Below, piece after piece: positions 8,844 to 57,420 of a stretch of 57,673 nt of DNA. The translations under genes were made by a program, and so were the position numbers. The notes beneath the pieces were generated by a model, which was not told the DNA's origin, searched no databases, and was given only the letters and a program-made list of their open reading frames with translations. The stretch's first letter is position 1, and each line of letters opens with the position of its first letter. This stretch comes from Emiliania huxleyi CCMP1516 (taxonomy: Eukaryota), in assembly GCF_000372725.1 (NCBI RefSeq), contig NW_005201223.1, forward strand, positions 342,657-400,329, read 5' to 3'.

Positions 8844-9344
8844 ATCGCCCTCCCTTGCCCAGCCAAAAGAATTGTGATCTCCTCGTGCGATGCGGGTACA
8901 CCTGGGTCACCCACAAGGCAGCGGGCAGTAAGGGGCCGGAGACGTCCAGGGGGTCAGCCCGCTACCTCGAGCACATCTCAGCGCGCGGGGGGGCGGGGAG
9001 GAAGGGCCGGGGCGGCTTCGGGGGGAGCAGGACGCAGTGGCGCGAAGGCATTCAGTGGCGCGCGAGCGAGAGCGGCGGCGGAGGCGGGGGCGAGCGGTCG
9101 ACGCGGCATGCCGAGGCGCTGCTGCGTGCTGGCGGGGGAGGAGGCGGAGAAGGAGGGCGCTCAAACATCAAAGGTGGGGACGTGTCTGGGACTCTGGGTC
9201 CTCGAACCCGCCCTAGCTTTGCGATCCGTTTTTCTTTCTTTCTTTTCTTTTATGTGTTCAAAGACACAAGTGCTCCAAGTCCGCGGGCCGTTCAGACTTC
9301 AGTTCCCCCACCCGACGACCTCCCCGGATCTCGGTGATTCTTTC

Positions 9345-10239
9345 AATGGTTGGGTAGTAGGGCTAGAGGGTCGCTCTACACTTAGCCTCTGCAGCGAGCG
9401 AGCGCTCAACTTAGCCCCCGCACGGAGCCGGGCTCAGACTTAGACGCTGGAAGGCCGGGGGCCATGAACTTAGACGACACGAGGCCAACTCCGGGCAAAA
9501 CCCGGGTATACCTGCAAAAGTCCAGGTTTACCCGAAAAATACCTGGACGCGGTCCCGACCAGCGTATGCCGCGCACGACGCCATATCACCGTCTCCCAGG
9601 GCCAGTGCGCTACTTGCGGCGCGCAACGCCTGCTCAAGTACGCGCACCGTACCATGTGCTGCCGCTATGCGTGCCTTAACGCTATGCGTGCCTTAAGGCG
9701 GCTGCGGCGAAGCGGCGGGCGCGGCATGCCGATGGCAGTGCGGACGATGCGGTTGCGATGTGTTCTGCTTCAAGATTGTGGCGGTGCTTGGCATGCACTT
9801 CTGCGATCCCAATCAGCTCATCGCAACGAAGCAGCGCAACAAGCTGGCTGCTGCCAACAAGGCCCTATGCTACCTCACGCGCGGATCGTTCAAAGAGGAC
9901 CAGCATACACAGGCTTCTCTGACATGCGTTTGTTTGAGCTTGAGGCTATTTGTGAGAACTATTTGGCTAGATGTCGCCGAAGTGCGCTCAAGAAGCAGCA
10001 ACGAGAATCGGAAGAGGAGGATGCTGAGGCGGCGATTGCTAAGCATGAGGAGGATCGATCGCCCGCCGCGCAGGCGAAGAAAATTTGGGCGCGAGCGCCG
10101 TATATCGCGTGCCATGGCCGACTTAGCCGGTGTAAGAGGCTCCCGCTGATCTTAGACCGCGTAAGCACTCCAGCGTGGCTAGCCACACTTAGACCCGTTA
10201 AGCCGCGAGGCTCAGAACTTAGACTACTACCCAACCAGT
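9345..10239 (+). mobile_element. non-autonomous hAT-like DNA transposon with a transposase remnant
   Basis: TIR AATGGTTGGGTAGTAG / CTACTACCCAACCAGT (15/16); 8-bp TSD ATTCTTTC at 9337-9344 and 10240-10247; subterminal ACTTAG repeats; internal LIATKQRNKL..ALCYL resembles the hAT dimerisation motif. Confidence 0.85.
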
Positions 10240-10432
10240 ATTCTTTCTATGGACTATGGTCTATGCTTTCTATGAGGGGGCCCTGCCGCAGAGGCGATTC
10301 GACATTCGTGAGAGGCGCGCACCACATGCAACGTACGTACAAAATCTGCCTGCGGGCGGCGACGCTCACAGCTCACAGCTCACAGCTCACGTGGCCTAGC
10401 ATAGCCTATCGTCGGCGACGTACGGCCGCCCG

Positions 10433-10527
10433 AGCGCTTTCCCTCGGTCTGTTAAACCTGAGGTCGTGGCCGTTTGGTATTCTCAGCCCCCCGCCGCACT
10501 GGGAGAGGTCGGGCTCCGGCAAGCGCT
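10433..10527 (-). ncRNA. TPP (THI-box) riboswitch-like aptamer in the SDR 3' UTR, variant
   Basis: Minus-strand RNA: P1 AGCGCUU/AAGCGCU; P2 GCCG/CGGC; GAG-CCC...GGG-CUGAGA; ACCUC-A-GGUU-UAACA-GACC-GAGG-GA. Element order matches the TPP aptamer architecture. Confidence 0.75.
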
Positions 10528-10546
10528 GTGCAGCGGCGAGGTGGTC

Positions 10547-11896
10547 TCAGGGCATCGTCAGCCCGCCATCGACCGACAGGCTCTGCCCGGTCACCGCGTT
10601 CGACGCGTCCGAGGCGAAGAAGACGCACGCCTGTGTGTGTGTGTGTGGCAGCGCCGCCTGCTTGAGTGTCGACGTCTGTGCTACTCCCTCTTCGACGCGC
10701 CGCCGTTCAGCGGTGGTCCGGCTGTTCCTCCCCTCGATCTACTTCTGTCAGTGGGCAGGTGATTGGGAGGCAGGCCGGCGGCGTGCCACCCACCGCGATC
10801 GAAAGGCGAGTGTCGTCTCCGGGTGCTCTCAGTCGGCGGCCGATTGCGCGTCGTGCAAATCGACGCGTTGGACCGTGCGTACATCTACCTGCACGCCTCG
10901 GCAAAATCGTTGACCGTCGTCGTCTTGCGCAGTGGCGTGCCGGCGGACACAAAGCCAAACACCTCCTTGGTCGTTAGGGCCGACGCGTCGGTCGTCTCGA
11001 GCAGGCCGCCCGCCACCAGGTTGACGCGCACGCCGGACGGCCCCAGCTCCGCGGCGAGGTTGCGCGTGAGGCCGACGAGCGCCGCCTGCGGGAAGGCTCA
11101 AGGAAGTGTCTGGGCAAGGGGCTGGGTGGTGCGCGTGAGGCCGACGAGCGCCGCCTTCGCCGCGGTGTAGTCGTAGTACGTGACGACAGGGTTGTACACC
11201 TGCGGCGTGAACTCACCAATGTCAGGGTGTGAATACGGTGTCGTGCAGCATCGCGTGCATACACCGGCTACAACTAGAATTGAGAATACAGTTGATTGCG
11301 TGTCCTCTCTAGTGCTCGCCGGGACACACGGATCTGTATAACCATCTAGGGCTGTCGACGAGGTTGGAGCCGATGTTGACCACCTTCCCGAACTTGGACG
11401 CCTCAAACGAGGGCAGCGCTGCCTGCACCATGTTGACGGCGCCGGCGAGCGTACCTCTCATCTGCTGCTCCAGGTCCTCTGTCGACACCGTCTTAATGCT
11501 CGCCATGGATGAGCCCGGGTCGAACTTGTAGCGGGGCAGCGCATTGTTGACAACGACGCTGACCTTCCTGCCAAAGTGCGTCTCGGCATCAGCGACCAGC
11601 TTCACCATGTCCTCCTTGACCGTCACGTCGCCCTGCGCGGCGAGGGCGCGCGACGGCCACGCGGCGTTGATCTCGGCGGCGACGGCTTCGCCCTTCTCCT
11701 TGCTGCTGAAGTAGTTCACCACAACAAACGCTCCCTCACGGGCGTACACCCGTGCGAGCTCGGCTCCAACGCCACGCGATGCGCCAGTGATGACGGCGAG
11801 CTTTCCCGCCAGCTGGCCGACGGCCAGAGAGGAGGAGTCGGCGCACTCCTCCTTTGCGAGTGCGGCGAGCAGGCTGCAGCAGAGCAGGAAGGGCAT
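10547..11896 (-). CDS. classical SDR, 3-oxoacyl-ACP reductase paralog (PRK08642/OarX-like), 4 exons, possible signal peptide
   Basis: TGASRGVG, VVNNA, NIGSNL/VYNPVVTYYDYTAAK/AALVGLTRNLAAELGPSGVRVNLVAGGLLETTDAS...TPLRK/ACVFFAS..VTGQSLSVDGG. Confidence 0.9.
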
Positions 11897-11988
11897 GGAC
11901 GCAGCAGTCAGTCAGTCTCGCCAGCGCGTGGTCGTGCGTTTCGATGCGCTCCTCCGTACCGGGCTCCTTCTCCCGCCCGCGGTTGGTA

Positions 11989-12753
11989 CAACACAAAACA
12001 ATCTAACCGGCCAAACCGGCCAACGCGCCGGTCGTGCACGGCGACAAGGAGAAACCAGAGCTCACCCGGCAGTACAACGAGGGGTACAAGGTCGACCTCG
12101 CGGAACCCCACGCTGGCCCGGGAGGATGCGATGAGGTGAATGAAGTCAAGCTCTGGACGCCCCTCCTCAAGACCTCCTCGGCGGGCGTTGGTAACGCCTC
12201 GAGCGGCGGCACGCCCGCCTCCGTTGGCCACTCCTACGCCTTCGGCAACACCGAAGAGAAGGCCCGCCGCCTAAACATGGGCTGCAAGGCGCGCGGGCAG
12301 CCCGGCCAACCCTTCTCCCACAAGACCGGCCACGGCTACGTCAAGGCGCATCGCGGTTTCTACCACGACGCGATCTTTGTCAAGCGCAACAACTTCAACC
12401 TGCTGCTCCACGAGACGTTCGGCGGCGGCTTCTCGCCCACCGCCGTTCTCAAGCTGCGCCGCCTCGCGCGCAAAGTCGCGCGCGGCAGCGTCGACCGCAC
12501 GGCCTACTCGCCCAAGTACTCGCTCTCTTTTATGTCCCACCATGCAGAGCGCATCTCTCTCTCTGTTGTGCGAGGCGTGAACCGCGCCATTCGCTCTCAC
12601 CTGGCAACCCTGTCTGCACGTCTCGCGCGCGCGTGAACAGCCCCCCCCCCCCCGCAAACTTTAAACCTCCATAAACATCATTTTGCAGGGGCTCCAGGCC
12701 CCAAATGACGTGTGAGTGTTAGATTTGTTTGGTATTGCTAAAAATCTCTCTCT
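11989..12753 (+). mobile_element. 5'-truncated CRE-like non-LTR retrotransposon (restriction-like endonuclease C-terminus and 3' UTR)
   Basis: ORF ending at 12636 with VDL..EVK, HETFGG and RISLSVVRGVN motifs; (TC)n tail; 9-bp TSD CGGTTGGTA at 11980-11988 and 12754-12762. Confidence 0.75.
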
Positions 12754-12923
12754 CGGTTGGTATAGCTTTTGGGATACGAGCGGCATTGCTTGAAAAAGAA
12801 TTTTACAAAACTCCCTCCTAACTGGGCTTTACTGGCGTGTCACTTGAAAAAGAAACAATGCAAGCCCACGCGCCGCTCCTGCTCTCGCCTCCGGTTGCGG
12901 ACTGCAAAGCGCGCCTCTAGTGC

Positions 12924-14444
12924 ATGTCGGGCAGGCGCCCAGATCCCCTGCTGCGAGAGTCTCCGCCGGGGCCGCGGACACGCTTCCCGGCTCCGGCCGC
13001 CCTCTTCGGCGCGCCGGCCATCCTGCCCCCGCGGCACGGATCCAGCGGCGACTCTGCTTTCCTGTCCATCGTCCTGGAGGAGTTTGATCGCAACGCCTTT
13101 GAGATCGCGCTCCTTCCTCACGTCGCCCTCGCCTGCAAGAGGGCGCTCGCATGCACGTGCTATGCGCTACGCGAGCGCCTCACCCCGCACTTGCGTGCCG
13201 CGACGCTCTCTGTCCTGCGGGACGACGCCGTCTGGAGCAACGCCCTCTTTGTGGCCAGGCTGCCCGGTCTGTCGGACCTGCGGGTTGAGGGCGAGACGAG
13301 TCTGCCCTCGATGGATCTGGCGCGGTACAGGCGGCTGGAGGCGCTGAAAGTCGGCGCCCTCAGCACGCCCGCGGCCCTCTTCTTTGGCGCCGCCATCGCC
13401 GCATCCAACGCACGGCTGCGGCTCTCTGATGGCAACGCGATTCGTAACATTGCAGCACTGCGATCGAGCCCAAGCCCCGACAAGGCAGAGCCAAACGCGT
13501 CGGACGCCGACCGCGCCGCGTTGCTCGGCGCGTTGGCTTCAAACCAGCACGAGATCTTCAGCGCCCTCGACGCGCTATCGTACGCGAGCGGGGCGCTCGG
13601 ACACGACAGGGAGGTGGTGCGAGCTGCGGTCCGGGAGGATGGCACGGCGCTCGAATACGCATCTAGCGAGCTGAGGGCGGACAAGTCCATCGTGATGGAC
13701 GCGGTGCGGACCGGCGCGACCGGCGCCTGGCCCGGCGCGTGGTTGGGCCTCGCCAGCGAGGCGCTCCGCGGGGACAGCGAGGTTGTGCTCGCGGCGGGCA
13801 CACGGTACGTAGCGCGGGCATTGTCGTATGCGACCGACGCCGTCAAGGAGGACCGGGCCGTCGTGCTCGTGGCTGTCCGCATGGATGGAATGGCGCTGCG
13901 CTATGCGGCGGGCAGCATCAAGGGGGACAGGGAGGTGGTGCTCGAAGCGGTGCGACAGTCGGGACAGGCGCTGCAGTACGCGACAGGCTCCCTCAGGGCG
14001 GACAGGGCTGTCGCGTTCGAGGCGGTGCGGCAAGACGGGGACGCACTGAGATGGGCGGGGGCGGTCATCAAGGCGGACAAGGACGTCGCTCTGGCGGCGG
14101 TGAGGAAGGAAGGGCGGACCCTGGAGTTTGTGGCGGAAGCCCTGCAGGCAGACAGGGAGGTGGTGCTTGCGGCGGTGGATCAGGCCCAGGCTCGAGCCCA
14201 GGCAACCTTTCGTTCCACCCTCGCCCTCATTGCCAGGGCCGGGGCAACAGGGACAGTCCTGTCAGCCTCCGCCACCCTGAGGGCGCACTTGCGGCAGGTC
14301 CTGCTGTACGCGCGCGATCGTCTCTTCGAGGACGATGCGTTTGTGCTCGCGGCGCACGAGCATGCCAAGGCGATCTGGACCACGCCTGCAAACGATTTGC
14401 AAGACATGCGCGAGCGTCTGCGCCTCCTCAAGGAACTGGTGTGA
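12924..14444 (+). CDS. DUF4116 repeat-containing protein
   Basis: Intronless 506-aa ORF with about 7 repeats of DREVVLxAVRxxGxALxYAxxxLRAD. Confidence 0.85.
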   Translation: MSGRRPDPLLRESPPGPRTRFPAPAALFGAPAILPPRHGSSGDSAFLSIVLEEFDRNAFEIALLPHVALACKRALACTCYALRERLTPHLRAATLSVLRDDAVWSNALFVARLPGLSDLRVEGETSLPSMDLARYRRLEALKVGALSTPAALFFGAAIAASNARLRLSDGNAIRNIAALRSSPSPDKAEPNASDADRAALLGALASNQHEIFSALDALSYASGALGHDREVVRAAVREDGTALEYASSELRADKSIVMDAVRTGATGAWPGAWLGLASEALRGDSEVVLAAGTRYVARALSYATDAVKEDRAVVLVAVRMDGMALRYAAGSIKGDREVVLEAVRQSGQALQYATGSLRADRAVAFEAVRQDGDALRWAGAVIKADKDVALAAVRKEGRTLEFVAEALQADREVVLAAVDQAQARAQATFRSTLALIARAGATGTVLSASATLRAHLRQVLLYARDRLFEDDAFVLAAHEHAKAIWTTPANDLQDMRERLRLLKELV

Positions 14445-20004: not shown

Positions 20005-21879
20005 ATGTTCGCAAAGACCCGCTCGCAGGGCACTGCTCACGAGCAGGAGCGCTCAGTCTCGCCGGCCGTGGTCCTGCCGAGCAGGGATAGCCAGGACGCC
20101 GAGGAAGAGGGTCTGCTAGTCAAAGCAGAACACCTTTCGAGCGGGCTGAGTGGGCGGATGCCGAATCTCTCGCCTTTCCACGCCGGCGTCTGCTGCCTCC
20201 TCTCTGTCCAAAACAGCTCATACGTGCTGCTGCGGCGCTACTCGTCGGGTGTGCTGCACGAGGAGGCGTCGGCGCAGTCGATTCTCGCGGTTGGCGAGGT
20301 GCTCAAGCTGTGCTTCTCGTGGCTGATGATCCTCCGTGAGTCGCCGGACGATCCAGGCGAGGCACGCCTCCACGACAGCGCGAAGCGTGGACCGCGCTGG
20401 TTTGCAGAGACGAGCCTCAAGCTTGTGCGCACGTCAGCAAAGATGGCGGTGCGCCGCGCCCTTGCACGCTCGCGGCCCTCAGCCCGCCGGCCCGCCAGCA
20501 GCCTCGCTGCCGCTCGCACCGGCTGGGGAGCTGGGGCGGGAGGTTGCGGGGTACCTCGACACGCCAGCTCTCCGCCCCCGCTGCCACCGCACCGCCGCCG
20601 CCGCCGCCACTGCCGCCACTGCCACCTCCGCCGCCCAAGCCGCCGCCGCCGTCGCGAGCCGTCACCGATCCGGCCGTTGCCTCCGCCCCCGCAGGTGCCC
20701 GCGCTCATCTTCCTTGGTATGAACCTCCTCTCCTTCGTCGCGCTGGAGCGCATCTCTGCCTCGTCCTTTACGCTCATCCAGCAGGCGACACTTCCGAGAC
20801 ACTTCCGAGACGCTTCCGAGACGCTTCCGAGACACTTCCGAGACCGATGCCAACCCGCGAGCGTCGTGGCCAGGCACCTCTCCTGCCGCTCCTCCATTGC
20901 CTCTGCTGCCGCCCACCCCCCTCCCCTCCCCGCTCGCGCCTTGCATGACCGACGCCCGTCCGCCTGTCCCGCCCTGTCCCCAAGCCCCGCCCACCCCGCA
21001 GACAAAAATCCTCTTCACCGCCGTCCTCTCGCGGCTGCTGCTGCAGAGGCTCCTCTCGCTCGCGCGGTGGCGGGCGATCCTCACCCTCTTCCTCTCGGTG
21101 CTCATCATCTGCCACCAGACGCAGCCGCAAGCCGCGTGCGCGCCGCCGCCGCGGGAGACGCTCGCCACTGCGGAGCACATGCAGCAGGCAGCAGACATGC
21201 GCGAGGCCGTGGCGGGCGAGGGCGGCGGGCCGACGGAGCGGGCGTGGCACGACTACGTCGTCGGCGTGAGCGCTGTCACTCTCGAGGCGATGCTCTCTGG
21301 CCTGAGCAACGTCTACTTTGAGAGGGTGCTCAAGTCGACGGCGCTGTCGTTGTGGGAGAGAAACGTCCAGCTGGCGGGCTACTCTCTGCTCATCTACGTC
21401 CCGATGGCGCAGCACGCTCACCCGGGCGACGGCATGTCCCGCGGCTGTCGTGCCAGGGGGGGGAGCGCCTTCGACCACTCTTCCCTGCAACGTAGGCGAC
21501 ATGCTGCATGGCTGGTCGGGGGTGACGGTGGTGGTCGCGTGTCTCGGCGCGCTCGGCGGGATCCTCATCGGGTGAGCACGAGATCGCGGGGAGATTGCGG
21601 GAGATCGCGGGGAGATTGCGCGCGCGGTTGGGACCAGTTGTTCTCAGGACCAGGGGGTGGGTGGGGTGCCTCTCCTGAAGTCACACGCCTGCTCGCGCCT
21701 CGGCCGTTAGGCTGGTCCTCAAGTACTGCGACTCCATCATCAAGAACCTCGCCCTCTCCACCGCCATCATCACCACGGCCACCCTCGACCACTTTGTATT
21801 CCACGGGCCTATGAACCTGCCAATCATCGCGGCGGCCGGCTCCGTCCTCATCTCGATCATCAACTACACAGACGCGTGA
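20005..21879 (+). CDS. nucleotide-sugar transporter, SLC35A family (UDP-Gal/CMP-Sia-like), spliced
   Basis: GEVLKL, VPALIF..NLL, QTKILFTA, SGLSNVYFERVLK, LWERNVQL, VLKYCDSIIK. Confidence 0.9.
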
Positions 21880-26796: not shown

Positions 26797-28329
26797 TCAC
26801 TTTCCTCGGCCGCGTGCTGCCGCGGCGGCACGTCCCTCGGCCTTGCGCAGCAGCTTCTTGTTGACCTGCACGAGATCGAGATTGAAGTGGGTGTAGAAGA
26901 CCAGCAGCACAAACACAGCCAGGAAGATTGGCGAGAGGAGCGGGTACTCATATCCCAGGCCGCGCAGGCCGAGGTTTGTGACGTAGACAGGGAAGTCACC
27001 CGTGTAAATGTACGCCAGACGGAGGCACGCATATGACATCGGCCCCCACCAGACGATGCGGGTGGCGTAGAGGGAGCCGAGGACGAGCCGCTGGAAGTTG
27101 AGCAGCGCCTTTGGCCACGACATGGCGGGCGTCTGGTGGACCGCCATCGCGAGGAGCATCATGCCGCCCGAGAAGTGGTTCGTGATGAGCACCTGCGCCA
27201 TGAAGGCCTTGGAGATGCCCGGGCCCGCCATGAGCGCCATCATCTCGAACCCGACGCCAAAGATGTGGTGCGGCACCATCACGTTGTCGATCGCCTTGTT
27301 GTAGCGCGAGATGGTGTAGTCGGCGCCCGTCGGCGACAGGCGCCGGTAGAACATCGCGAGCATGTCGTACGTCTCCCACGCCATGTCGGCGTACATGACG
27401 AAGTAAAAGATCGAGTCGTCGCGGCGGAAGAGGTAGAGCAGCGGGAGCGCGGTGCCGACGAGGAAATGCTCGAGCGCAAAAACGACTTGCCCGAAGCCGA
27501 CGGTGGCCAGGCTGGGCGAGTGCTCGTTGACGAAGTTCCAGTCGTTCATGAAGGGCGCGCGGTACGGGAAGGCGAGGCCCTTCTCGTTGAGCGCGTAGCG
27601 CTTGTGGCACCAGCCGCTGTGCTTGGCATCCCACAGCTCCTGCATGTACGCCATGGCCTCGCGCGCGGCCGTCTCGCGCCGCGCCGCGTCGGACGCCGGA
27701 GGTGCGACGCCGCGGAAGGCCAGGAAGCGGGCAACCTGCTCCTCGCTCGCCTCCATCACCGGCACGTCGAACGGCTGCGACTGGCCGGGCGGGTCGGGCC
27801 ACGGCAGCTGGCTCGGCAGACTGCACTTGGACGCGTCAAAGTGGGTGAAGAGGAGGCGCGCGATGATGCCCGTGGTCCACATGAAGAAGTTGCCCAGGAC
27901 GGCGGCGACCAGGAGCGAGAAGGCGTAGCGGATCGGCGAGAAGTCGCCCACGAACGCCTCGGAGATGGAGAAGCTGCCGAGCCGCAGCTCCGAGCGCGAG
28001 AGCTGGAAGGCCTGGTCGAGGCACTGGGTCGTGATGCACCAGCCGGCGTAGTCGCCGGCCAGGACCATCTCCTTGTTGGGCCACACGCCGGTCAGGGCGA
28101 TGATGCGGTTGAAGATTGCAATGTCGGATTCGAGAGGGTCAAGGCTGGCAAGGGCGGCGAAGACAGCGGCGGCGACAGCGGCGACGGCGGTTGTGAAGTG
28201 GGAGGATACGCTGAGCGAGTGCTGGTGGTTGTCTTTCGTGGCGCGGCAGGAGGCACCGGACGGGGACTTCTGAGCCTTGATGGTCGTGACGAGGGAGGAG
28301 ACGCCGAGTGAGGACCTGGCGATGACCAT
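26797..28329 (-). CDS. multi-pass membrane protein, TLC (TRAM/LAG1/CLN8)-like, copy 1
   Basis: Intronless 510-aa ORF with many TM segments; WETYD, MVPHHIFG and YATRIVWW resemble the TLC pattern. Confidence 0.7.
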   Translation of the reverse strand: MVIARSSLGVSSLVTTIKAQKSPSGASCRATKDNHQHSLSVSSHFTTAVAAVAAAVFAALASLDPLESDIAIFNRIIALTGVWPNKEMVLAGDYAGWCITTQCLDQAFQLSRSELRLGSFSISEAFVGDFSPIRYAFSLLVAAVLGNFFMWTTGIIARLLFTHFDASKCSLPSQLPWPDPPGQSQPFDVPVMEASEEQVARFLAFRGVAPPASDAARRETAAREAMAYMQELWDAKHSGWCHKRYALNEKGLAFPYRAPFMNDWNFVNEHSPSLATVGFGQVVFALEHFLVGTALPLLYLFRRDDSIFYFVMYADMAWETYDMLAMFYRRLSPTGADYTISRYNKAIDNVMVPHHIFGVGFEMMALMAGPGISKAFMAQVLITNHFSGGMMLLAMAVHQTPAMSWPKALLNFQRLVLGSLYATRIVWWGPMSYACLRLAYIYTGDFPVYVTNLGLRGLGYEYPLLSPIFLAVFVLLVFYTHFNLDLVQVNKKLLRKAEGRAAAAARGRGK

Positions 28330-28407
28330 TGTTGCCCTCGGGGCACCTCAAGGATCGGTTGAAAAAGAATTTTACAACCCAGCTCCCTCGTGAAAAAGAA
28401 CCTCATA

Positions 28408-28520
28408 AGGGTGGGCGACGGCTAGCGCACCACACCACTCTCCTTAAAATCCCTGTGTGGTGGCGGCGTGCCGTCCTCCCATCCCTCCCTTGGTTGTCCG
28501 TTTTCTTTCTTTCTTTCTTT
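28408..28520 (-). promoter_or_regulatory. shared upstream module
   Basis: near-identical to 57307-57420 and 40646-40741; ~80 bp before ATG 28329. Confidence 0.5.
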
Positions 28521-28856: not shown

Positions 28857-30362
28857 TTACATCCCACGGCCGCGTGCTGCCGCGGCGGCACGTCCCTCGG
28901 CCTTGCGCAGCAGCTTCTTGTTGACCTGCACGAGATCGAGATTGAAGTGGGTGTAGAAGACCAGCAGCACAAACACAGCCAGGAAGATTGGCGAGAGGAG
29001 CGGGTACTCATAGCCCAGGCCGCGCAGGCCCAGGCTAGCAATGTAGTCCGGGAAGTCGCCAGTATAGATGTAGGTGAGGCGAAGGCACGCCACCGACATC
29101 GGCCCCCACCAGACGATGCGGGTGGCGTAGAGGGAGCCGAGGACGAGCCGCTGGAAGTTGAGCAGCGCCTTTGGCCACGACATGGCGGGCGTCTGGTGGA
29201 CCGCCATCGCGAGGAGCATCATGCCGCCCGAGAAGTGGTTCGTGATGAGCACCTGCGCCATGAAGGCCTTGGAGATGCCCGGGCCCGCCATGAGCGCCAT
29301 CATCTCGAACCCGACGCCAAAGATGTGGTGCGGCACCATCACGTTGTCGATCGCCTTGTTGTAGCGCGAGATGGTGTAGTCGGCGCCCGTCGGCGACAGG
29401 CGCCGGTAGAACATCGCGAGCATGTCGTACGTCTCCCACGCCATGTCGGCGTACATGACGAAGTAAAAGATCGAGTCGTCGCGGCGGAAGAGGTAGAGCA
29501 GCGGGAGCGCGGTGCCGACGAGGAAATGCTCGAGCGCAAAAACGACTTGCCCGAAGCCGACGGTGGCCAGGCTGGGCGAGTGCTCGTTGACGAAGTTCCA
29601 GTCGTTCATGAAGGGCGCGCGGTACGGGAAGGCGAGGCCCTTCTCGTTGAGCGCGTAGCGCTTGTGGCACCAGCCGCTGTGCTTGGCATCCCACAGCTCC
29701 TGCATGTACGCCATGGCCTCGCGCGCGGCCGTCTCGCGCCGCGCCGCGTCGGACGCCGGAGGTGCGACGCCGCGGAAGGCCAGGAAGCGGGCAACCTGCT
29801 CCTCGCTCGCCTCCATCACCGGCACGTCGAACGGCTGCGACTGGCCGGGCGGGTCGGGCCACGGCAGCTGGCTCGGCAGACTGCACTTGGACGCGTCAAA
29901 GTGGGTGAAGAGGAGGCGCGCGATGATGCCCGTGGTCCACATGAAGAAGTTGCCCAGGACGGCGGCGACCAGGAGCGAGAAGGCGTAGCGGATCGGCGAG
30001 AAGTCGCCCACGAACGCCTCGGAGATGGAGAAGCTGCCGAGCCGCAGCTCCGAGCGCGAGAGCTGGAAGGCCTGGTCGAGGCACTGGGTCGTGATGCACC
30101 AGCCGGCGTAGTCGCCGGCCAGGACCATCTCCTTGTTGGGCCACACGCCGAACAGCGCTATGAACCTGTCAAATCGGTCGATGTCGAAGACGGACTGCAG
30201 GGCGGTGAGCGCGGCGGAGAAGTCGGGCGGCGGCGCGGCGACGAGGCTGGCAACGACGATGGCGGAGGCGGCGGCGGCGGCGGCGGCAGTGGCGGTCGTG
30301 GCGCGGGAGGAGACGGATGACATGGACTTGGCGCCGATCGAGGAGTGGGAAGTCGAGGCCAT
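28857..30362 (-). CDS. TLC-like membrane protein, copy 2 (alternative start at 30470)
   Basis: 29095-30150 appears identical to 27035-28090; the N-terminus differs. Confidence 0.7.
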   Translation of the reverse strand: MASTSHSSIGAKSMSSVSSRATTATAAAAAAASAIVVASLVAAPPPDFSAALTALQSVFDIDRFDRFIALFGVWPNKEMVLAGDYAGWCITTQCLDQAFQLSRSELRLGSFSISEAFVGDFSPIRYAFSLLVAAVLGNFFMWTTGIIARLLFTHFDASKCSLPSQLPWPDPPGQSQPFDVPVMEASEEQVARFLAFRGVAPPASDAARRETAAREAMAYMQELWDAKHSGWCHKRYALNEKGLAFPYRAPFMNDWNFVNEHSPSLATVGFGQVVFALEHFLVGTALPLLYLFRRDDSIFYFVMYADMAWETYDMLAMFYRRLSPTGADYTISRYNKAIDNVMVPHHIFGVGFEMMALMAGPGISKAFMAQVLITNHFSGGMMLLAMAVHQTPAMSWPKALLNFQRLVLGSLYATRIVWWGPMSVACLRLTYIYTGDFPDYIASLGLRGLGYEYPLLSPIFLAVFVLLVFYTHFNLDLVQVNKKLLRKAEGRAAAAARGRGM

Positions 30363-30763: not shown

Positions 30764-32134
30764 ATGACAACCGTCGCCAAGCTTTTCGCCCTCCCGCTCG
30801 TGCTGGCCATGCTCCTCGTACAGCTCACCCTCATTCCGGTCATGCTTCCGGCCTTTCTCGTGCTGCTCTCCTCCAGCGCCCTGATGGCCGGCGCCTTGAA
30901 GCTCCTTCACCCGACGCAGACGGACGAGGTGACAAATGAGGAGTTCTACGGCTCCATTCTTCTGCTGCACATGAAGTCGGCCTGGGCGGCGCTCGCGGGC
31001 GTGGTCCTCGCCATCGTCGGGCCGTTTCAGATGGTCTCCGCCCTCGTCAGGTCCGCCGGCTCGCGGCCGGCAAACACGCTGCGGCCAACCTCGGTGCTGA
31101 TCACGGGCGCCAGCAGCGGCATCGGCGCCGAGCTCGCTCGTCAGTATGCAAAGCCCGGCGTCCGCCTCGTGCTCACCGCACGGCGGGTAACAAAGCTGGA
31201 CGCCGTCAAGGCGCAGTGCGAGGCGCTCGGCGCCGTGGTCACCGCCGTGCCGGCGGATGTGACGGACGCAGACATGATGGCGTCCGTCGTGGCCGCCGCG
31301 GACGAGGACGCGCCGCTCGACCTCGTGGTCGCAAACGCAGGCTGCTCCGAGTCGAACGTGCCCGGCGGCTCGCCGCTCTGGCACAAGGCGGGCGTGGTCA
31401 ACTCGACCAACGTGATGGGCACCGTCAACACAGTCAGCCCGGCGATGGAGCGGATGGTGGCGCGCGGGCACGGCCAGATCGTCATCATGGCGTCCGTGGC
31501 GTCCGCGGGCTCGAGCACCAACCCGTCAAGCGTCTCGTACGCGGCGAGCAAGGTGTGGGGCCGCGCCTATGGGCAGGGGCTGCGCGGCGCGCTCAAGGGG
31601 ACGGGCGTGGGCGTGACGACCATCTGCCCCGGGTTTGTGGACTCGGAGATGGTGGGCGGCAAGGACGCGCGCAAGTCGGGCTGGCTGCCGTCGACCAACT
31701 GCCCCGGCTTTGCCAAGCGCTTCCTCGAGTCGATGACGATGCCGACCGACCAGGCCGTGCGGCACATGGTTGCGTCCATCGGGCGGAACGCGGGCGTCGT
31801 CACCCTGCCCTGGTGGTACCTCGCCTCCCTGTGGGCGCCGCAGATGCCGCACTACAACCTGATGCCGCCCTTTGTCGAGTACTGGCTCGCGCCGTCCGGC
31901 CAGGTCAAGCCGCCCGCGCCGGCCGGCACCAAAAAGGCGTTCCGCGCGCCGTCGTCGTCCGAGGAGGAGGACGCGTCGAGCCCTCGCATCACCGAGAGGA
32001 CGCCCAGCGTGTCGTCGTCCGAGGAGGAGGACATGCTGCCCTCCGCGAGCCCCTCGCTCCGCAAGCTGCGGCGTGCGGGCCGCGCGGTCCGCTTCTGCGT
32101 GTCGCACCTGGACGGCCTGCAGCTGTCCAGGTGA
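30764..32134 (+). CDS. short-chain dehydrogenase/reductase with N-terminal membrane segments
   Basis: ITGASSGIG, VANAG, MAS, YAASK, CPGFVDS. Confidence 0.9.
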   Translation: MTTVAKLFALPLVLAMLLVQLTLIPVMLPAFLVLLSSSALMAGALKLLHPTQTDEVTNEEFYGSILLLHMKSAWAALAGVVLAIVGPFQMVSALVRSAGSRPANTLRPTSVLITGASSGIGAELARQYAKPGVRLVLTARRVTKLDAVKAQCEALGAVVTAVPADVTDADMMASVVAAADEDAPLDLVVANAGCSESNVPGGSPLWHKAGVVNSTNVMGTVNTVSPAMERMVARGHGQIVIMASVASAGSSTNPSSVSYAASKVWGRAYGQGLRGALKGTGVGVTTICPGFVDSEMVGGKDARKSGWLPSTNCPGFAKRFLESMTMPTDQAVRHMVASIGRNAGVVTLPWWYLASLWAPQMPHYNLMPPFVEYWLAPSGQVKPPAPAGTKKAFRAPSSSEEEDASSPRITERTPSVSSSEEEDMLPSASPSLRKLRRAGRAVRFCVSHLDGLQLSR

Positions 32135-33385: not shown

Positions 33386-34280
33386 GCTGCTGTTAGCCTG
33401 TTACCTCCGGTCCACACGGGTACTCCCCTAGGTACTCCCGTGTCAGCTCCCGTGCTTAGGTCAACAAGGCCCCACGGTACACGGCGTCTCCACACTAGGC
33501 GAGTCACACATGTGTCGTGATTGGGATCAAAGCGCCTATTGAGCGTCATGAATGAATGTATGTATGTGTATGTTGTCAGCTTTTTGTCGATGCTCCCGGC
33601 GGAGCGACGCATTCGTCTTGGCTTGGGTCTGCTGCGCGCTGCTCCGGGGAAGCTGCTCCGGGGAAGCTTTGTCTCTCTCGCTCTCGCTCGCACTAATTCT
33701 TCCGCGTTGTGTACCTGTGTTACAATCTGTTGCGGGCATTAAGAAAACAGGACCCGCGGCACGCCGCCGTTTCTAAGCCTTTCCACCCACCCCACCCACC
33801 CCACGCCGTGGTTTCATAGCTTCGGTGTTCGTGCGAGGGAGTTTTGTTGTAAAATTCTTAGCTTCGGCCGCACGGCCGGCACCCCAGGTCAGCCGGGATC
33901 TACAGTCTGTAGGAACGTTTAGGTAAAATGACAATAAGGAAGCGCTGGACCGATGTCGCAAGTCCGCAGTCTGCCACCCACTTGGGATGACAGGAAGACG
34001 CACACACCTCCATCCACACCGCCCAGAACACCGCAGACTTGGGCAAAATGACAAGTGCGCGCGCGCGCGCCGCAGGCGAAGAAAAAATTTGAGCGGGGCT
34101 CCTGTTTCACACTCGTGTGTGGGCCCTTTCTTGGTTGGGGCCGCGCCTGCGGCGCTTTGGAAATCGCTTGGTAGGGTTTCTTAATTAATGCCCTGTTTTC
34201 AACAAACAAAATTAATGCCCGCAACAGACTGTAGTCCCAGTGCGCGCCAGTCTTGTGCCTATAGTGTCGCGCGAGGGATA

Positions 34281-34436
34281 TAGAAAGAAAGAAAGAAAAC
34301 AGATAACCCAAGGGAGGGATGGGAAAAGAAAGAAAGAAAACAGATAACCCAAGGGAGGGATGGGAGGACGGCACGAAACCACAAAGAAAGAAAGAAAGAA
34401 AACAGACACGCCAAACGAGGAATGGGAAGAAAGGAC
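34281..34436 (+). promoter_or_regulatory. tandem partial copies of the shared upstream module
   Basis: three units of GAAAGAAAGAAAACAGA..., two followed by TAACCCAAGGGAGGGATGGG; ~90 bp before ATG 34527. Confidence 0.45.
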
Positions 34437-34526: not shown

Positions 34527-35552
34527 ATGCTGCCCCTCGCGTGCGTCCTCGCCACCGTATTCGCTGTGCTCGCCACCGTGCTCGCACTGACGAAGAAGCT
34601 CACCGCTCGCCAACGGTGGAGTCCTCGCGAGAAGACTATCGTGCTCACTGGCGCCTCCTCTGGCATCGGCTCGTCTCTCGCTAGAACCTACGCCGCGCAG
34701 GGAGCCAAGCTCTACCTTGTGGCTCGGAGGCGTGAGGCGCTCGAGGCGGCCTGCGAGGAGTGCATGGCGGCGGGCGCGAGCAGCGCTAAAGCGGTGGTGG
34801 CCGACGTCTCAAGCGAGAGCGGCTGGGATGCGATCCGCAGCGCCATTGGAGACGACACCGTCGACTTGCTCGTGCTCAACGCCGGGCTCTCCATGGGCTC
34901 GCCGTTTGCCTCGCTGAGCGAGCGCAAGGAGGCGATGGGCATCATGAAGCACCTGATGGACGTCAACTACATGGGCGCGGTCGGCGTGCTCGACGCCTGC
35001 CTCGGTGCCATGCGGCAAGCGGAGGGCGGAGTCCGGCTGCTGGTGGTGAGCAGCGTGGTGGGCCTCGTGGCGCCGCCCACCCGGACCGGCTACGCCGCCT
35101 CCAAGTTTGCGCTCAAGGGCTTCTTCAATGCGCTGCGTGTCGAGCTCGGGATGAGTGAGCAGGTGCCGCCCACGATCACGCTCGCCTATCCCGGCGCGGT
35201 CAAGACAAACATCAACCGCGCGCGCCTGCGGGGCGGCGTGGACGGCGGCAGCGGCGCGGTGGACCTCGAGCTCGACAAGAGCATGAGCGCCGACCGCTGC
35301 GCCTCGATCATGGCTCGCGCTCACGCGGCGGGGTGCCGGGATGTCTACTATTCCATCGACGGCACTCGGGTCGGCGCCGTCAAGACGAGGCTCCTCCGCC
35401 ACCTCGCCTTCTTCTTCCCCGCCGGCGCCGACAAGGTGCTCGCAAAGAGCATCGGCGCGATGAGCAAGTCGCGCAGGCAGGTCAAGGGCCTGCTCAAGGG
35501 CGTCGCCAAACTCGTCATCGCCAGCTCTCGCTTCCAACCCACGCCCTCCTGA
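34527..35552 (+). CDS. SDR, DHRS7/11beta-HSD-like, with N-terminal anchor
   Basis: LTGASSGIG, LNAG, VSSVVG, PTRTGYAASKFALKGFFNALRVE. Confidence 0.9.
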   Translation: MLPLACVLATVFAVLATVLALTKKLTARQRWSPREKTIVLTGASSGIGSSLARTYAAQGAKLYLVARRREALEAACEECMAAGASSAKAVVADVSSESGWDAIRSAIGDDTVDLLVLNAGLSMGSPFASLSERKEAMGIMKHLMDVNYMGAVGVLDACLGAMRQAEGGVRLLVVSSVVGLVAPPTRTGYAASKFALKGFFNALRVELGMSEQVPPTITLAYPGAVKTNINRARLRGGVDGGSGAVDLELDKSMSADRCASIMARAHAAGCRDVYYSIDGTRVGAVKTRLLRHLAFFFPAGADKVLAKSIGAMSKSRRQVKGLLKGVAKLVIASSRFQPTPS

Positions 35553-36229
35553 GACGGGCGTGGCGTGGACGGCGGCCGCGTTGTCGCTTGTTGCGAAGCG
35601 CGTGTACGATGGGCTCCAATCTGTCTATTGCCATGCGGCTCTCTATAATTTATTCAACGGTGTTCTTGCTATGCGGCTCTCTATTTATTCAACGGTGTTC
35701 GCCTCAGCTGGTGAGTGCAGAGTGTATTCTCTCCGCAGCACCGGACAAGACACAAGTGTGTAGACTTTCAGAGTTTCCCTCAGTTGAGCTCGAGAGATCT
35801 CTCGCATGTCGCAATATTGCGTGCCGCCGGAGCCCGGAGTGTGCAGATGAGAGACGGCCTCGGGCCCTCTGTCTCTCTCGCGGAGATAGAGGTGTCAGGA
35901 GTGTCAGCCCTGTGGCTGTGCCGTGCGCGGCCGCGGGCCTGCACCGTGCACGCGCCACGCCGACGCGCGGTGTGTGACCTCTGACGTGTGTGTGGTGTGT
36001 GTGCGTATACCTAAATGCGGTGTTACACCGGTTTAGCGGTCGCGCGCGGGGCTGATTTTTGATGATGATACCACGCGCCGTCCGCCGTGACGGAAGGCGC
36101 GAAGCGAGGGAAGAGCCGTGAAGGGTAAAGACCAAAAAGAGCCGTACGGAAGTGAAAGCTTTGAAAAAAAAATTGCTAACGCGAAAAACCGGCACACCAA
36201 TCTCCCTTCCTCTCCCTATCCTTTCTTGG

Positions 36230-37941: not shown

Positions 37942-40385
37942 TCAGCGGCGCGGGCGCGTGGAGGCGAAAACGAGAGCGCTTGTGATCGCCACGCTCGCGA
38001 CGCTGCACGCCAGCACGGCGTGCGATGTGCGGCGGTGCTGCGCCCGGAGCAGCCGCATCTCGTCGGCGAGGCTGCTCACCTGCTCGCGGCGCACGCCCGG
38101 CGTGAGAGGGACGGCGGCGGACGTCTCCTCGCACCCGGTCGATTCTCGGAGAGGGCGCGCGCCTCCCGCTCGTGAGCAGTCGCCGCCTGCGCGAGAGCTG
38201 CGCGGAGCTCGCACCGCAGCGTCTCCGCGCTGAGAGGGCCCTCCTACACGGGGCCGTCTCTCGAGGGCGTGAGAGCGCGCGGGGAGAGCGCGCGGCCGTT
38301 TGCGCCCGCTTGCGCCCGCTCCTCCTCCGCAGAGCCCCGGGGCTGGCCCGGCGCCATCACGACGGCATCGGGCTCGTCGGCGGCGGCCGAGACTGCGCCG
38401 TTGGTCAGCGAGGCGCGGCCGCTGCCGTTGATCACCGACCCAGTCTCCGACGCGTCGCTTCCGGTGCCGGGCATCTGGTGCAGCGCCCCTCGGATGAGGG
38501 CGAGGATGTCGAGCACGCCGACGGGCTCGCCTACGTCTCGCGCAATCTCGGGCAATCTCGGGCAATCTCGGGCAGTCTCGAGGAGCACGCTGAGGGGCTC
38601 GAGGAAGGCGTCCTCGGCGATCCCTCGGCGATCTCTCGGCGATCTCTCGGCGATCTCTCGGCGATCTCTCGGCGATCTCTCGGCGATCTCTCGGCGATCT
38701 CTCGGCGATCTCTCGGCGATCTCTCGGCGATCTCTCGGCGATCTCTCGCCCGACTGCCGCACGACGGGCACGTTGCGATAGCCGGAGCCCTCCAGCTGCG
38801 AGAGCGCGTCGAGCACCGAGGCCGAGACAGGGAGGGTGTGCGGGTCCGGCGTCATGACGGCGCCGACCTGCGGGGAAGGGTCCGAGAAGCTTCCGAGGGG
38901 AAGGGTCCGGTGAGGCAAGCACCGCGGCGGCGGGCAAGGCCTTCGTGTCGCGCGGGTCGAGCCCGGCGGCGATGACGCGGAANNNNNNNNNNNNNNNNNN
39001 NNNNNNNNNNNNNNNNNNNNNNNNNNNNNNNNNNNNNNNNNNNNNNNNNNNNNNNNNNNNNNNNNNNNNNNNNNNNNNNNNNGTCGTGGGAGAGGGCTTT
39101 AGTCGTGGGAGAGGGCTTAGTCGTGGGAGAGGGCTTAGTCGTGGGAGAGGGCTTAGTCGTGGGAGAGGGCTTAGTCGTGGGAGAGGGCTTAGTCGTGGGA
39201 GAGGGCTTAGTCGTGGGAGAGGGCTTTAGTCGTGGGAGCATCTCCAGGACGGCGCCTCGCCGCGCACGAGGACAGCGCCCCTCCTCGCCACCATCACGCT
39301 CGCCGCCTGCTGCACCGACGCCTACAAGAAAAAGAAATACATGCACGAAAAGAAATACACACGCGCGCCGCCTGCTGCACCGACGCCGTCGGGGCGACGC
39401 AGCCCGCCTGACAAGAAAAAGAAACACATGCGGGAAAAGAAACACATGCCTCCGCCATCGCAGCCCGCCTCCGCCATCGCGCAACCCTCCTCCGCTGGAT
39501 CGTCGAGGAGTGAGGCCAGGCTCACCTGATCCGGAGAGACGCTCGAGGTCAGGGCGAGAGGAGGTCGAGACGCGGGCCGCGGGGCGACCGCTCGCCGCAT
39601 GGCCCAGCTGGTGCCCGTGCAGCCCCGCCAGGGCCTCCGAGAGGCACTTTGCCACGTCGAGCAGCCCGGCCACCGAGCCAGCCTACAAGAAAAGAAACAC
39701 GTGCAAAAAAGAAACAAAAGCGCCACGCCGGCCACCGAGCTAGCCTCGTCGAGGACTGGTAGGTGCCTGCGGACGCGGGGAGAGCGGTGTCGCACTCGTC
39801 ATCACAGGGAGTGGGCACGCGTGCCGTGTGGAGTGGGCACGAGGTGCCGTGGGACGGCCGCCGGGCATTGGGGGCCGCTCGCCGGAAGCAGTTGTCCACC
39901 ATAGTGCACAGCGCCGAGGACGCCGTCGCATTCCAGAGCACGGTCTGAGGGTTGCGCGTCATGACGGCCTCGACGGCGGTGGCGTCTGCGTCGCGCCCGA
40001 GCGCCACCACTTTCCGGCACACGTCCGTGTCGGTGACGATGCCGACCGCCGCGCGAGACGACGAGGATGTCCGCACGAGCGCGGCGTCGGCGTTCGCGGC
40101 GGCCATCTTGCGCGCGGCGTCAGAGACGGAGATGCCGGCGTCGATCAGAAGCGCCTTGCGCGGCCGCAGCGCGGCAACGCTGCGCCCCGACCGCTGGGAG
40201 CTGCGGACGGCGCCGAGGTCTATGACCGCCTCGCTGCCAACCGACGCAGTCTCGCCGTTGTTGGACGACCTGCGTGCATCTTGCGACTGCTGGATGATGT
40301 CTCGCAGCGCGCGGCGCGCGTGCGACTTCATCGGCCCGAACAGTATCGCCCGGCGGGACACGAAGCCTGGCTCGGGGCCCTCCAT
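37942..40385 (-). CDS. CBS-domain protein (CBSCBSPB-like) with C-terminal TM, multi-exon, spans an N-gap
   Basis: VGIVTDTDVCRKVVA, VMTRNPQTV, FR/HLPVLD, GLLDVAKCL, VMTPDPHTL..YRNVPVV; hydrophobic C-terminal tail. Confidence 0.85.
38615..38748. repeat. 11-bp intronic tandem repeat (GGCGATCTCTC)n
   Basis: seen directly in the sequence. Confidence 0.95.
39083..39238. repeat. 18-bp tandem repeat (GTCGTGGGAGAGGGCTTA)n
   Basis: seen directly, adjoining the N-gap. Confidence 0.95.
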
Positions 40386-40549
40386 CGTAGCAGCAGCGCG
40401 GCAGCGCGGCAGCAGCGCGGCGGTCGAGAGCTCGGCGAAAGAGCAAGTGGGAGGCGCCAAACGGGGGCAAGAGAACAAAAAAGAATTTTACCCCGCGCTC
40501 CAAGTGCTGATCGTCCTTCCAAAATCCTGCTCGTGCAGGTGGGGACCCT

Positions 40550-40790
40550 GTCCTCCTCCCCCATCCCTCGTTTGCATTGCTGTTTTCTTTCTTTCTTTCT
40601 TTCCACAAAACTCCCTCGCACAACACTGGGCCGCACGGGACTGGCGCGCACCACACACCTCTCCTTAAAATCCCTGTGTGGTGGCGGCGTGCCGTCCTCC
40701 CATCCCTCCCTTGGGTTGTCTGTTTTTTTCTTTCTTTCTTTGGCGCGCACCGCGCACCGTGCGCGCCAGTCCCGTGCCCAGTGTTGTGCA
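40550..40790 (-). promoter_or_regulatory. shared upstream module, here enclosed by ~32-bp inverted repeats
   Basis: 40646-40741 matches 57324-57420; 40618-40651 is inverted at 40759-40789. Confidence 0.5.
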
Positions 40791-42281: not shown

Positions 42282-44158
42282 ATGGCGACAGTCGTAATGA
42301 AAAGCTTCGCACTCGTCGTGCTAGCGCTGGCCGCCGCAGAGGCGCTGCAACTGCACCCCGCCGGCGCTAATGGCGCTGTGCGTACCGCCGGCGCTATTGG
42401 CGCTGTGCGTACCGCTGGCGCGCTGCGTCCCGCCGCCCGTCGCAGCGGCGAAATTCACCTCCTCGACAAGAAGGGCGAGGCGCATAGCACCGTCGTCTTT
42501 CTGCGCCACGGGCAGAGTACGTGGAATGCCGACTCGCTCTTCACGGGCTGGGCCGACGTCGAACTGACGACGCTGGGCAAGAACGAGGCCGCGGGCGCCG
42601 CGGCGACCCTCTGGAAGGAGGGCATCGAGTTTGACGTCGCCTACTGCAGCCGGCTCAAGCGTGCGAGGCAGACGCTCGAAATCGTGCTCAGCATCTCCGG
42701 CCAGGAGGAGGTGCCTGTCAACGCGTGCTGGCGACTGAACGAGCGAATGTACGGCGGGCTGACCGGTCTCAACAAGAAGGAGACGGCCGCCAAGTATGGC
42801 GACGAGCAGGTCAAGCGGTGGCGCCGCTCGTACGACGTCCCTCCTCCCCCGGTCGAAAAGGACTCGCCGTACTACCCGGGCAACAACCCGCAGTACTACC
42901 ACATCCGGGAGGAGGAGCTGCCCCTGTCAGAGTGCCTTAAGGCGCGCGCCCGGGCGGTGGCGGCCGGTGGCGGCGGCGGGCGGCGGTGGTGGTGACACAG
43001 ACCTGCCGCCGTGACACACAGCCCTGCAGCCAAGTGCCTCTCGCACTGGCTCCTCCCTGCCGAGCCATCCTCCCGCGCCGCCTCCTCGCCCTACTACACA
43101 GGACACGCTCGAGCGCACGCTTCCCTACTGGGAGAGCGACATCGTGCCGGCGCTGACCAAGGGCAAGACGGTGCCCGAGATCACCCGAGATCACCCGAGA
43201 TTACGAGCACTCCTCTTGTCGGACGCTCTGTTGCCGTAGCGCGCGCACGGAGAGAGACGAGCGCGCCGTGCGGTTCCGGGGTGCTCGTAATCTCGGGTGA
43301 TCTCGGGTGATCTCGNNNNNNNNNNNNNNNNNNNNNNNNNNNNNNNNNNNNNNNNNNNNNNNNNNNNNNNNNNNNNNNNNNNNNNNNNNNNNNNNNNNNN
43401 NNNNNNNNNNNNNNNNNNNNNNNNNNNNNNNNNNNNNNNNNNNNNNNNNNNNNNNNNNNNNNNNNNNNNNNNNNNNNNNNNNNNNNNNNNNNNNNNNNNN
43501 NNNNNNNNNNNNNNNNNNNNNNNNNNNNNNNNNNNNNNNNNNNNNNNNNNNNNNNNNNNNNNNNNNNNNNNNNNNNNNNNNNNNNNNNNNNNNNNNNNNN
43601 NNNNNNNNNNNNNNNNNNNNNNNNNNNNNNNNNNNNNNNNNNNNNNNNNNNNNNNNNNNNNNNNNNNNNNNNNNNNNNNNNNNNNNNNNNNNNNNNNNNN
43701 NNNNNNNNNNNNNNNNNNNNNNNNNNNNNNNNNNNNNNNNNNNNNNNNNNNNNNNNNNNNNNNNNNNNNNNNNNNNNNNNNNNNNNNNNNNNNNNNNNNN
43801 NNNNNNNNNNNNNNNNNNNNNNNNNNNNNNNNNNNNNNNNGCGAATCACGCGAGATCACGCGAGATCACGCGAGATCACGCGAGATCACGGCACGCGAGA
43901 TCACGCGAGATCACGCGAGATCTCCCGAGAGGCGCTGCCGGGACGCCGAGGCGAGTGCCGTGCCAGCTCCCGTTTGTGTGCAGTGGACAGGGCCTCCCCC
44001 CCCCCCCCCCCCACACCTTGCGTGTTGTGGAGGAGTGTGTGCCTCGCACCTCGCCGCAGGTGAACGAGATCTTCGAGATGGTCGACCGGAACGGTGACGG
44101 CCGAATAGACTTTGAGGAGTTCGTCCAGGCGATTACGGCCGAGAGCCTCCCCCGATAG
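42282..44158 (+). CDS. gpmA: 2,3-bisphosphoglycerate-dependent phosphoglycerate mutase, likely plastid-targeted, possible C-terminal EF-hand (middle hidden by an N-gap)
   Basis: LRHGQSTWN, FTGWADV, WRLNERMYGGLTGLNK, WRRSYDVPPP, SECLK/DTLERTLPYW; last exon 44060-44158 has DRNGDGRIDFEE. Confidence 0.85.
43176..43315. repeat. intronic inverted repeat built from CGAGATCACC units
   Basis: 43176-43210 is the reverse complement of 43281-43315. Confidence 0.85.
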
Positions 44159-50453: not shown

Positions 50454-52576
<2,123 letters not shown>

Positions 52577-57146: not shown

Positions 57147-57306
57147 TTTCGGAGGTGGAGCGTGCGGAAGAGAGGTGGGCTCGGTGTGGTACGGTGGACG
57201 CGGCACGGGGAAGCCGTCGGGGCTCGGGAAAGGATGTCGGGCACCAAAGCCGAGAAGCCGTAAAGAATTCCGTCGCCTAGTGCTCCAAGTGCTCCGTCAA
57301 CGTTCT

Positions 57307-57420
57307 AGGGTGGGCGACGGATAGCGCACCACACACCTCTCCTTAAAATCCCTGTGTGGTGGCGGCGTGCCGTCCTCCCATCCCTCCCTTGGGTTGTCTG
57401 TTTTCTTTCTTTCTTTCTTT
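57307..57420 (-). promoter_or_regulatory. shared upstream module
   Basis: near-identical to 28408-28520; ~160 bp before ATG 57146. Confidence 0.5.

Follow-up and report, generated by a model that had tools for sequence, protein, structure and literature searches.

Known Routes of Intron Gain

Several routes to new introns have been described, each with its own footprint at the intron borders. Published introners produce target-site duplications of 3–9 bp, fixed for each family, often carry terminal inverted repeats and occur in many near-identical copies; the main text of that work makes no mention of Emiliania (PMC9860276). In Daphnia, neo-introns are attributed to the repair of staggered double-strand breaks and show repeats of 4–12 bp, AT-rich inserts and polymorphism within populations (PMC4202315). 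Introns can also be gained by tandem genomic duplication around an AGGY motif (PMC3443670; PMC3265369), and direct repeats of 4–30 bp near intron borders have been reported generally, in an account whose main text does not include haptophytes (PMC11782384). In Emiliania huxleyi, GC donors constitute 56–65% of curated junctions and are ascribed to high GC content, the available text making no mention of an exon copy at the intron start (PMC4028052). A literature search, with subscription journals and supplements outside its scope, found no description of exon-copy donors in haptophytes.

The second intron of a short-chain dehydrogenase/reductase (SDR) gene in E. huxleyi CCMP1516, located in a 57.7-kb stretch of genomic DNA (the window, to which all plain coordinates refer), shares features with each of these systems. 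As in introners, the insert carries the acceptor, the donor comes from the duplicated target, the mRNA is unchanged and GC donors are favoured (PMC9860276; bioRxiv 2020.10.14.339549). Unlike the fixed 3–9 bp of introners, however, the E. huxleyi copies span 10–27 nt and vary in length; terminal inverted repeats are absent, and within the window no dispersed family was found, three similar fillers lying in a single CBS-domain gene. The Daphnia introns likewise have an untraced insert, a direct repeat common to the intron end and the adjacent exon, and no counterpart in orthologues, for which one Rhodomonas protein (P0036, see below) is a possible exception here. They differ in that the E. huxleyi repeats are longer and provide the GC donor, and in that the four DNA records covering the site contain no empty allele. 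Judged by anatomy, these break-repair introns are the closest parallel. With introns formed by tandem duplication the SDR intron shares the presence of both splice-site dinucleotides within a duplicated AG|GC segment, but the duplication accounts for no more than 25–27 of its 69 nt and lies on one side. The GC donor, AG acceptor and frequent retention are those of E. huxleyi GC-AG introns as far as these are described (PMC4028052).

Architecture of the SDR Gene and Its Second Intron

The SDR gene lies on the minus strand and consists of four exons: exon 1 (11360..11896, ATG at 11896), exon 2 (11155..11199, 45 nt, encoding the catalytic YxxxK), exon 3 (10897..11085) and exon 4 (10547..10630, including the stop). 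Intron 1 (11200..11359) has 160 nt with GT..AG borders and is spliced in RNA, while intron 3 (10631..10896) has 266 nt with GC..AG borders and an 8-nt repeat (2 + 6) across its ends. Translation of the joined exons gives the sequence of the transcript-derived P0128 with a single difference, 283 of its 284 residues being identical. P0128 matches the Pfam profile PF13561 (adh_short_C2) over its full length (1–236 of 236, E 2e-48), the Rossmann TGxxxGxG and YxxxK motifs are present, and the PDB matches are FabG-like; the predicted product is thus a complete classical short-chain dehydrogenase/reductase. The public model of the same strain (P0121) matches the window's SDR over its first 180 residues, but the catalytic exon of 45 nt is missing from it; the model runs on into introns 1, 2 and 3 and therefore has no YxxxK, which shows how such genes come to be mis-modelled. 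Directly upstream of the gene, the alleles in X7, X8, X10, L010 and L011 carry ~300 nt that are absent from the window (at 11909). This segment (L010:277-580, L011:1-165) is an insertion polymorphism containing part of a repeat found elsewhere in the window. Two further SDR-like genes (30770-32130 and 34530-35550), read by eye, are apparently intronless.

Intron 2 (11086..11154) is a 69-nt, phase 0, GC..AG intron between K194 and A195, directly after the catalytic motif. It is bordered by the 27-nt perfect repeat of the original prediction, whose copies at 11130..11156 and 11061..11087 are identical and are followed by a mismatch on either flank. The upstream copy comprises the last 2 nt of exon 2 (AG) and the first 25 nt of the intron, and is the source of the GC donor, whereas the downstream copy comprises the acceptor AG and the first 25 nt of exon 3. 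Hence the intron reads as a 25-nt copy of the exon 3 start, 42 nt of other sequence and AG; the rest of the repeat is the two AGs (exon 2 end and acceptor), and AG|GC falls within the duplicated unit. The 42-nt filler (11088..11129) is non-duplicated and pyrimidine-rich and contains an in-frame TGA (11100-11098). The repeat is far above chance expectation: the longest exact repeat at 30–300 nt spacing is 27 nt, against a maximum of 14 and a mean of 10.2 in 100 dinucleotide-model simulations of the region 9000-13000.

Removal of 69 nt can be placed in 28 equivalent registers that give an identical spliced product and that cDNA cannot distinguish, but GC..AG occurs on the minus strand only at 11086-11154, and this register restores the reading frame. 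Unspliced, the frame continues for 18 codons to the TGA; spliced, YTAAK is joined to AALVGLTRNL, so that the predicted borders, junction and loss of the stop codon all hold. The earlier description of the locus as an exon duplication is accurate for 25–27 nt; the other 42–44 nt have no exon origin, making the event an insertion with duplication.

Recurrence of the Exon Copy

The original prediction had also spoken of a recurring signature, and this is borne out by the CBS-domain gene at 39.3-39.9 kb, also on the minus strand, in which three introns spliced in RNA share the same build. Five introns of this gene are removed in one contig of RNA run X10 and present in run X7; three of the five begin with a copy of the next exon and two have ordinary GCGAG donors. 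The intron at 39322..39386 (65 nt, GC-AG) carries an exact 21-nt copy of the next exon, an alternative GC-AG register at 39307-39371 being equally good. That at 39408..39468 (61 nt, GC-AG) starts with 10 nt copied from the next exon, after which the end of the previous exon is repeated, and in that at 39683..39744 (62 nt, GC-AG) 17 of the first 20 nt match the next exon. The 21 nt between the first two (39387-39407) form a micro-exon that is flanked by two duplication-bounded introns and retained in RNA.

When positions 3–12 of the eight RNA-supported introns are compared with the next exon, the matches number 10, 10, 9, 8, 7, 5, 5 and 1 of 10, against a mean of 3.2 and a maximum of 6 in 56 cross-pairs. 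Four of the five strong cases had been preselected for the repeat, and the four unselected introns score 7, 5, 5 and 1, so that these values are not a frequency. On the upstream side of the introns the exon match is at background level. In the five copy-bearing introns (SDR introns 2 and 3 and the three CBS introns) the shared run reaches past the donor by 1–2 nt on the upstream side, except when one CBS intron is read in its alternative register, and repeat lengths of 27, 22, 12 and ~19 nt are found among copy-bearing introns. SDR intron 1 matches the next exon at 9 of its first 12 nt, and its start is possibly a decayed exon copy. The introns of other genes in the window, read by eye and not defined by RNA, are mostly devoid of a long copy.

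A candidate intron in another alga (L001:2412-2543; 132 nt, GT-AG) is bounded by a 17-nt repeat located on both sides of AG|GT (9 + 8 nt) and filled with telomere-like hexamers. Its deletion opens a long reading frame. Within L001:2403-2551, three further codons of the copy differ solely at third positions.

Origin of the Insert

The filler of SDR intron 2 has no match in the window above background (best score 25, compared with 22–34 for shuffled sequences), no template in the 500-nt flanks, and neither a dispersed copy nor poly(A) in the window. Inverted ends are lacking, with 3–5 of the 12 terminal bases complementary. Searches of genome contigs returned nothing beyond one unrelated bacterial match, and viral contigs contained no match to the filler or to the intron repeats of this genome; a pattern derived from L001 hit 122 viral loci, none of which has the intron architecture. 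A filler that is not derived from the exon, has no inverted ends and has no template in the flanks disfavours both plain tandem duplication and MITE-type introners.

An 11-nt period in the filler reaches p = 0.016 before correction for 18 periods, and a 10-mer of the filler recurs in two arrays of 11-nt repeats (16 matches where 2.6 would be expected, an excess due to the two arrays). Membership of an 11-nt intron repeat family was considered and rejected, as the whole filler does not exceed shuffles, and the likeness to these repeats is a lead only. Introns made of 10-11-nt or 18-nt tandem arrays are present at 20785-20845, 38613-38745, 39083-39230, 43170-43930 and 51090-52110, several of them adjoining assembly gaps. 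The window also contains a very high-copy short intergenic element (40500-40760, also 28400-28520, 34270-34400 and 57300-57420), with a summed contig depth of more than a million in run X8.

The three CBS fillers, in contrast to shuffled sequences with maxima of 29–34, are mutually similar (scores 39–52); they lie within 450 nt, their motif is absent elsewhere in the window, and in one of them 14 nt from the end of the preceding exon are repeated. Local template switching occurs in repair with templated insertions, and the similarity of these fillers within a single 450-nt stretch, together with the second short copy of an exon end, looks like the outcome of such a process. In all of the E. 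huxleyi cases the acceptor marks the beginning of the repeat, so that the 3′ splice site probably arrived with the insert.

On balance, the reading favoured here, with moderate confidence, is gain by an insertion of ~42–44 bases ending in AG, accompanied by duplication of 25–27 target bases, through a repair-type event or template switch. The insertion into the SDR exon would have taken place during break repair or, alternatively, a switch of template in replication. An intron already present may have provided the template for the insert with its 3′ end, in which case the acceptor was included, and the duplicated piece of exon would have supplied a free donor, given that the site is AAG|GC and the spliceosome of this alga accepts GC donors. 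Splicing would then restore the frame exactly, allowing the insertion to be tolerated, and the intronic copy would decay neutrally thereafter.

The main rival is a retro-type insertion, in which target-primed reverse transcription integrates either the RNA of an excised intron or a short element, SINE-like and with YAG at its end, yielding a variable target-site duplication, a truncated 5′ end and a donor derived from the duplication. Target-primed insertion is characterised by target-site duplications of variable length and by 5′ truncation, and the variable duplication of 10–27 nt that begins at the AG end of the insert speaks for this model, as do the constant 3′ end and common filler of the three CBS introns. 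However, the restriction of the CBS filler family to 450 nt of one gene suggests local copying, and the SDR filler has neither poly(A) nor a dispersed copy in the window. A retro-type insertion, whether of intron RNA or of a SINE-like element, is considered unlikely.

Gene Family and Age of the Intron

In a quick-method tree of 94 full-length rows, from which 33 truncated or read-through proteins were left out, the SDR gene belongs to a 40-row clade with an SH-aLRT support of 99. Its named members come from haptophytes, cryptophytes, diatoms, bolidophytes and dictyochophytes, and include proteins of Tisochrysis, Rhodomonas, Pedinella, Triparma and one diatom. Chloroherpetonaceae and cyanobacteria fall outside the clade and the best matches are eukaryotic, so the earlier impression of a bacterial-looking gene is not upheld. 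An ancient bacterial origin is possible but uninformative on intron 2.

Thirteen orthologous loci were compared, 11 of which contain the motif; it is interrupted by the intron in two (L010 and L011) and uninterrupted in nine. The latter include four genomic contigs from two eukaryotes (L001-L004) that share an 8-row clade with the window SDR (support 95), are 83–87% identical to it and have none of the three SDR introns. L008 and L009 have introns at other positions and none at the intron 2 site, while L005, which may be a transcript, and L006 and L007, which look bacterial, carry little weight. The introns of relatives, as seen in read-through proteins, sit at other codons, and several of these proteins run unbroken through K|A. 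Within E. huxleyi, an intronless allele is absent from the two DNA runs and two contigs that cover the site, a small sample, and the empty site is consequently known only from other species. A short search of read-through products yielded four proteins, among which the intron-bearing ones are unchanged across the translated intron and so provide no dating.

On these comparisons, intron 2 is likely a young gain in the Emiliania lineage. The gain predicted originally is therefore retained, but on other grounds: it follows from the closest genomic orthologues being intronless, and not from a bacterial origin, the reason first given, which fails. Caution comes from the Rhodomonas salina protein P0036, available as protein only, which departs from the family directly after YYDYTSSK, with V, as would be expected if a GT intron had been retained at this codon.

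This departure at the K|A boundary is the observation in favour of an old intron position, common to cryptophytes and lost in other haptophytes, at which a local copy of the next exon has recently replaced the start of the intron. Such a history would demand several independent losses (L001/2, L003/4, P0210-12, P0059, the pelagophyte P0016 types and L008/9), where under the alternative an intron need have been gained only twice at a proto-splice site (AAG|G); moreover, Rhodomonas belongs to a different subclade and none of the three E. huxleyi intron positions is common to the closest orthologues. Parallel gain at AAG|G would be more parsimonious than many losses, and the old position is judged improbable.

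Other members of the family also have inserts of their own. P0016, an orthologue of pelagophyte type, runs into an insert that lies four codons downstream of the intron 2 site and is absent from its cluster mates; the read-through resembles the translation of the Pelagomonas introner. In the P0008 and P0009 clusters, which are closely related to the intronless P0006 type, separate introns follow KFG and ELGP, an observation that includes X7 record 8 at window 11388-11393. Intron gain looks to be ongoing in the P0006-type clade as well. The contig L003:1-6318 is compact, apparently intronless and haptophyte-like, with genes read by motif as MADS-box, SDR, MAP kinase kinase, PP2C and 2OG-oxygenase.

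Plain Tandem Duplication as an Improbable Alternative

A tandem duplication of the entire 69 nt at AG|GC, as in the Rogers/Hellsten model, followed by turnover of 42–44 nt, would account for the presence of AG|GC inside the repeat. The mechanism has been shown in vivo (PMC3265369), and the candidate in L001 has its repeat on either side of AG|GT. In the SDR intron, however, the filler agrees with the adjoining upstream sequence at 15 of 44 positions and with the downstream sequence at 10 of 44, while 25 nt are perfect, and in the five E. huxleyi cases the repeat reaches just 1–2 nt upstream of the donor. Plain duplication is accordingly a poor candidate, with a low probability. Near-tandem duplications of 18–35 nt that are not intron-like occur at 31951-32032, 35633-35700 and 42358-42415, and this genome often makes short duplications. 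A near-identical tandem pair of intronless membrane-protein genes is found at 26800-28330 and 28870-30360.

Splicing and the Integrity of the Locus

Both copies of the repeat are held by single contigs of 1543 nt in run X8 and 741 nt in run X7 (both runs guessed to be DNA), and the same intron is found in two metagenome contigs (L010 and L011) with 99% identity to the window. With two copies in all four covering DNA records, the repeat is not an assembly artefact. In RNA run X10, one contig (depth 69.6) skips the 69 nt and none retains them; the joint in RNA rests on this one contig of one run, and runs X12 (SDR site) and X13, having no coverage of the introns, are uninformative. The same contig skips the 160 nt of intron 1, and a short X10 contig spans intron 3, for which both spliced and retained contigs are present in the run. 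The joined peptide across intron 2 occurs in the transcript proteins P0003, P0005, P0128-P0131 and P0137, while in P0004, from a very close relative, intron 1 is removed and intron 2 retained. The predicted cDNA junction is thus found both in the RNA contig and in transcript proteins. Intron 2 is spliced out of RNA; a jump of reverse transcriptase over the repeat could yield an identical cDNA, yet the protein requires the removal.

An artefact, whether an assembly error or an RNA skip produced by a reverse-transcriptase jump between the repeats or by an intronless allele, is very improbable: 27-nt repeats do favour template switching, a jump would give the same cDNA in any of the 28 registers and the X10 sample is represented by RNA only, but the four DNA records are independent, the skipped form is the sole one assembled in X10, the X10 alleles share variants with the intron-bearing X8, and without the removal the conserved C-terminal 90 residues of the SDR are lost.

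Implications for Intron Evolution in Haptophytes

The origin of new introns is a long-standing question, and readable footprints are rare among gains. SDR intron 2 appears as a repeat-flanked gain whose copy is long, variable and one-sided, a form at odds both with the introners published so far and with plain duplication. A single intron is modest; its value lies in the recurrence of the footprint in the same genome, perhaps also in a related alga, and in an easy genome-wide test. Tentatively, haptophytes may produce introns in large numbers by a route other than classical introners. An exon would receive the 3′ end of an intron already present in the genome and undergo a long duplication of variable length, the first GC of which would serve as donor; such a route could be a main source of E. 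huxleyi introns and the reason why GC donors outnumber GT. If this were true, older introns would carry a decayed copy, as SDR intron 1 may. E. huxleyi is a globally important alga whose GC-donor majority is unexplained and now has a candidate cause, as a route of insertion with target duplication may help to explain it.
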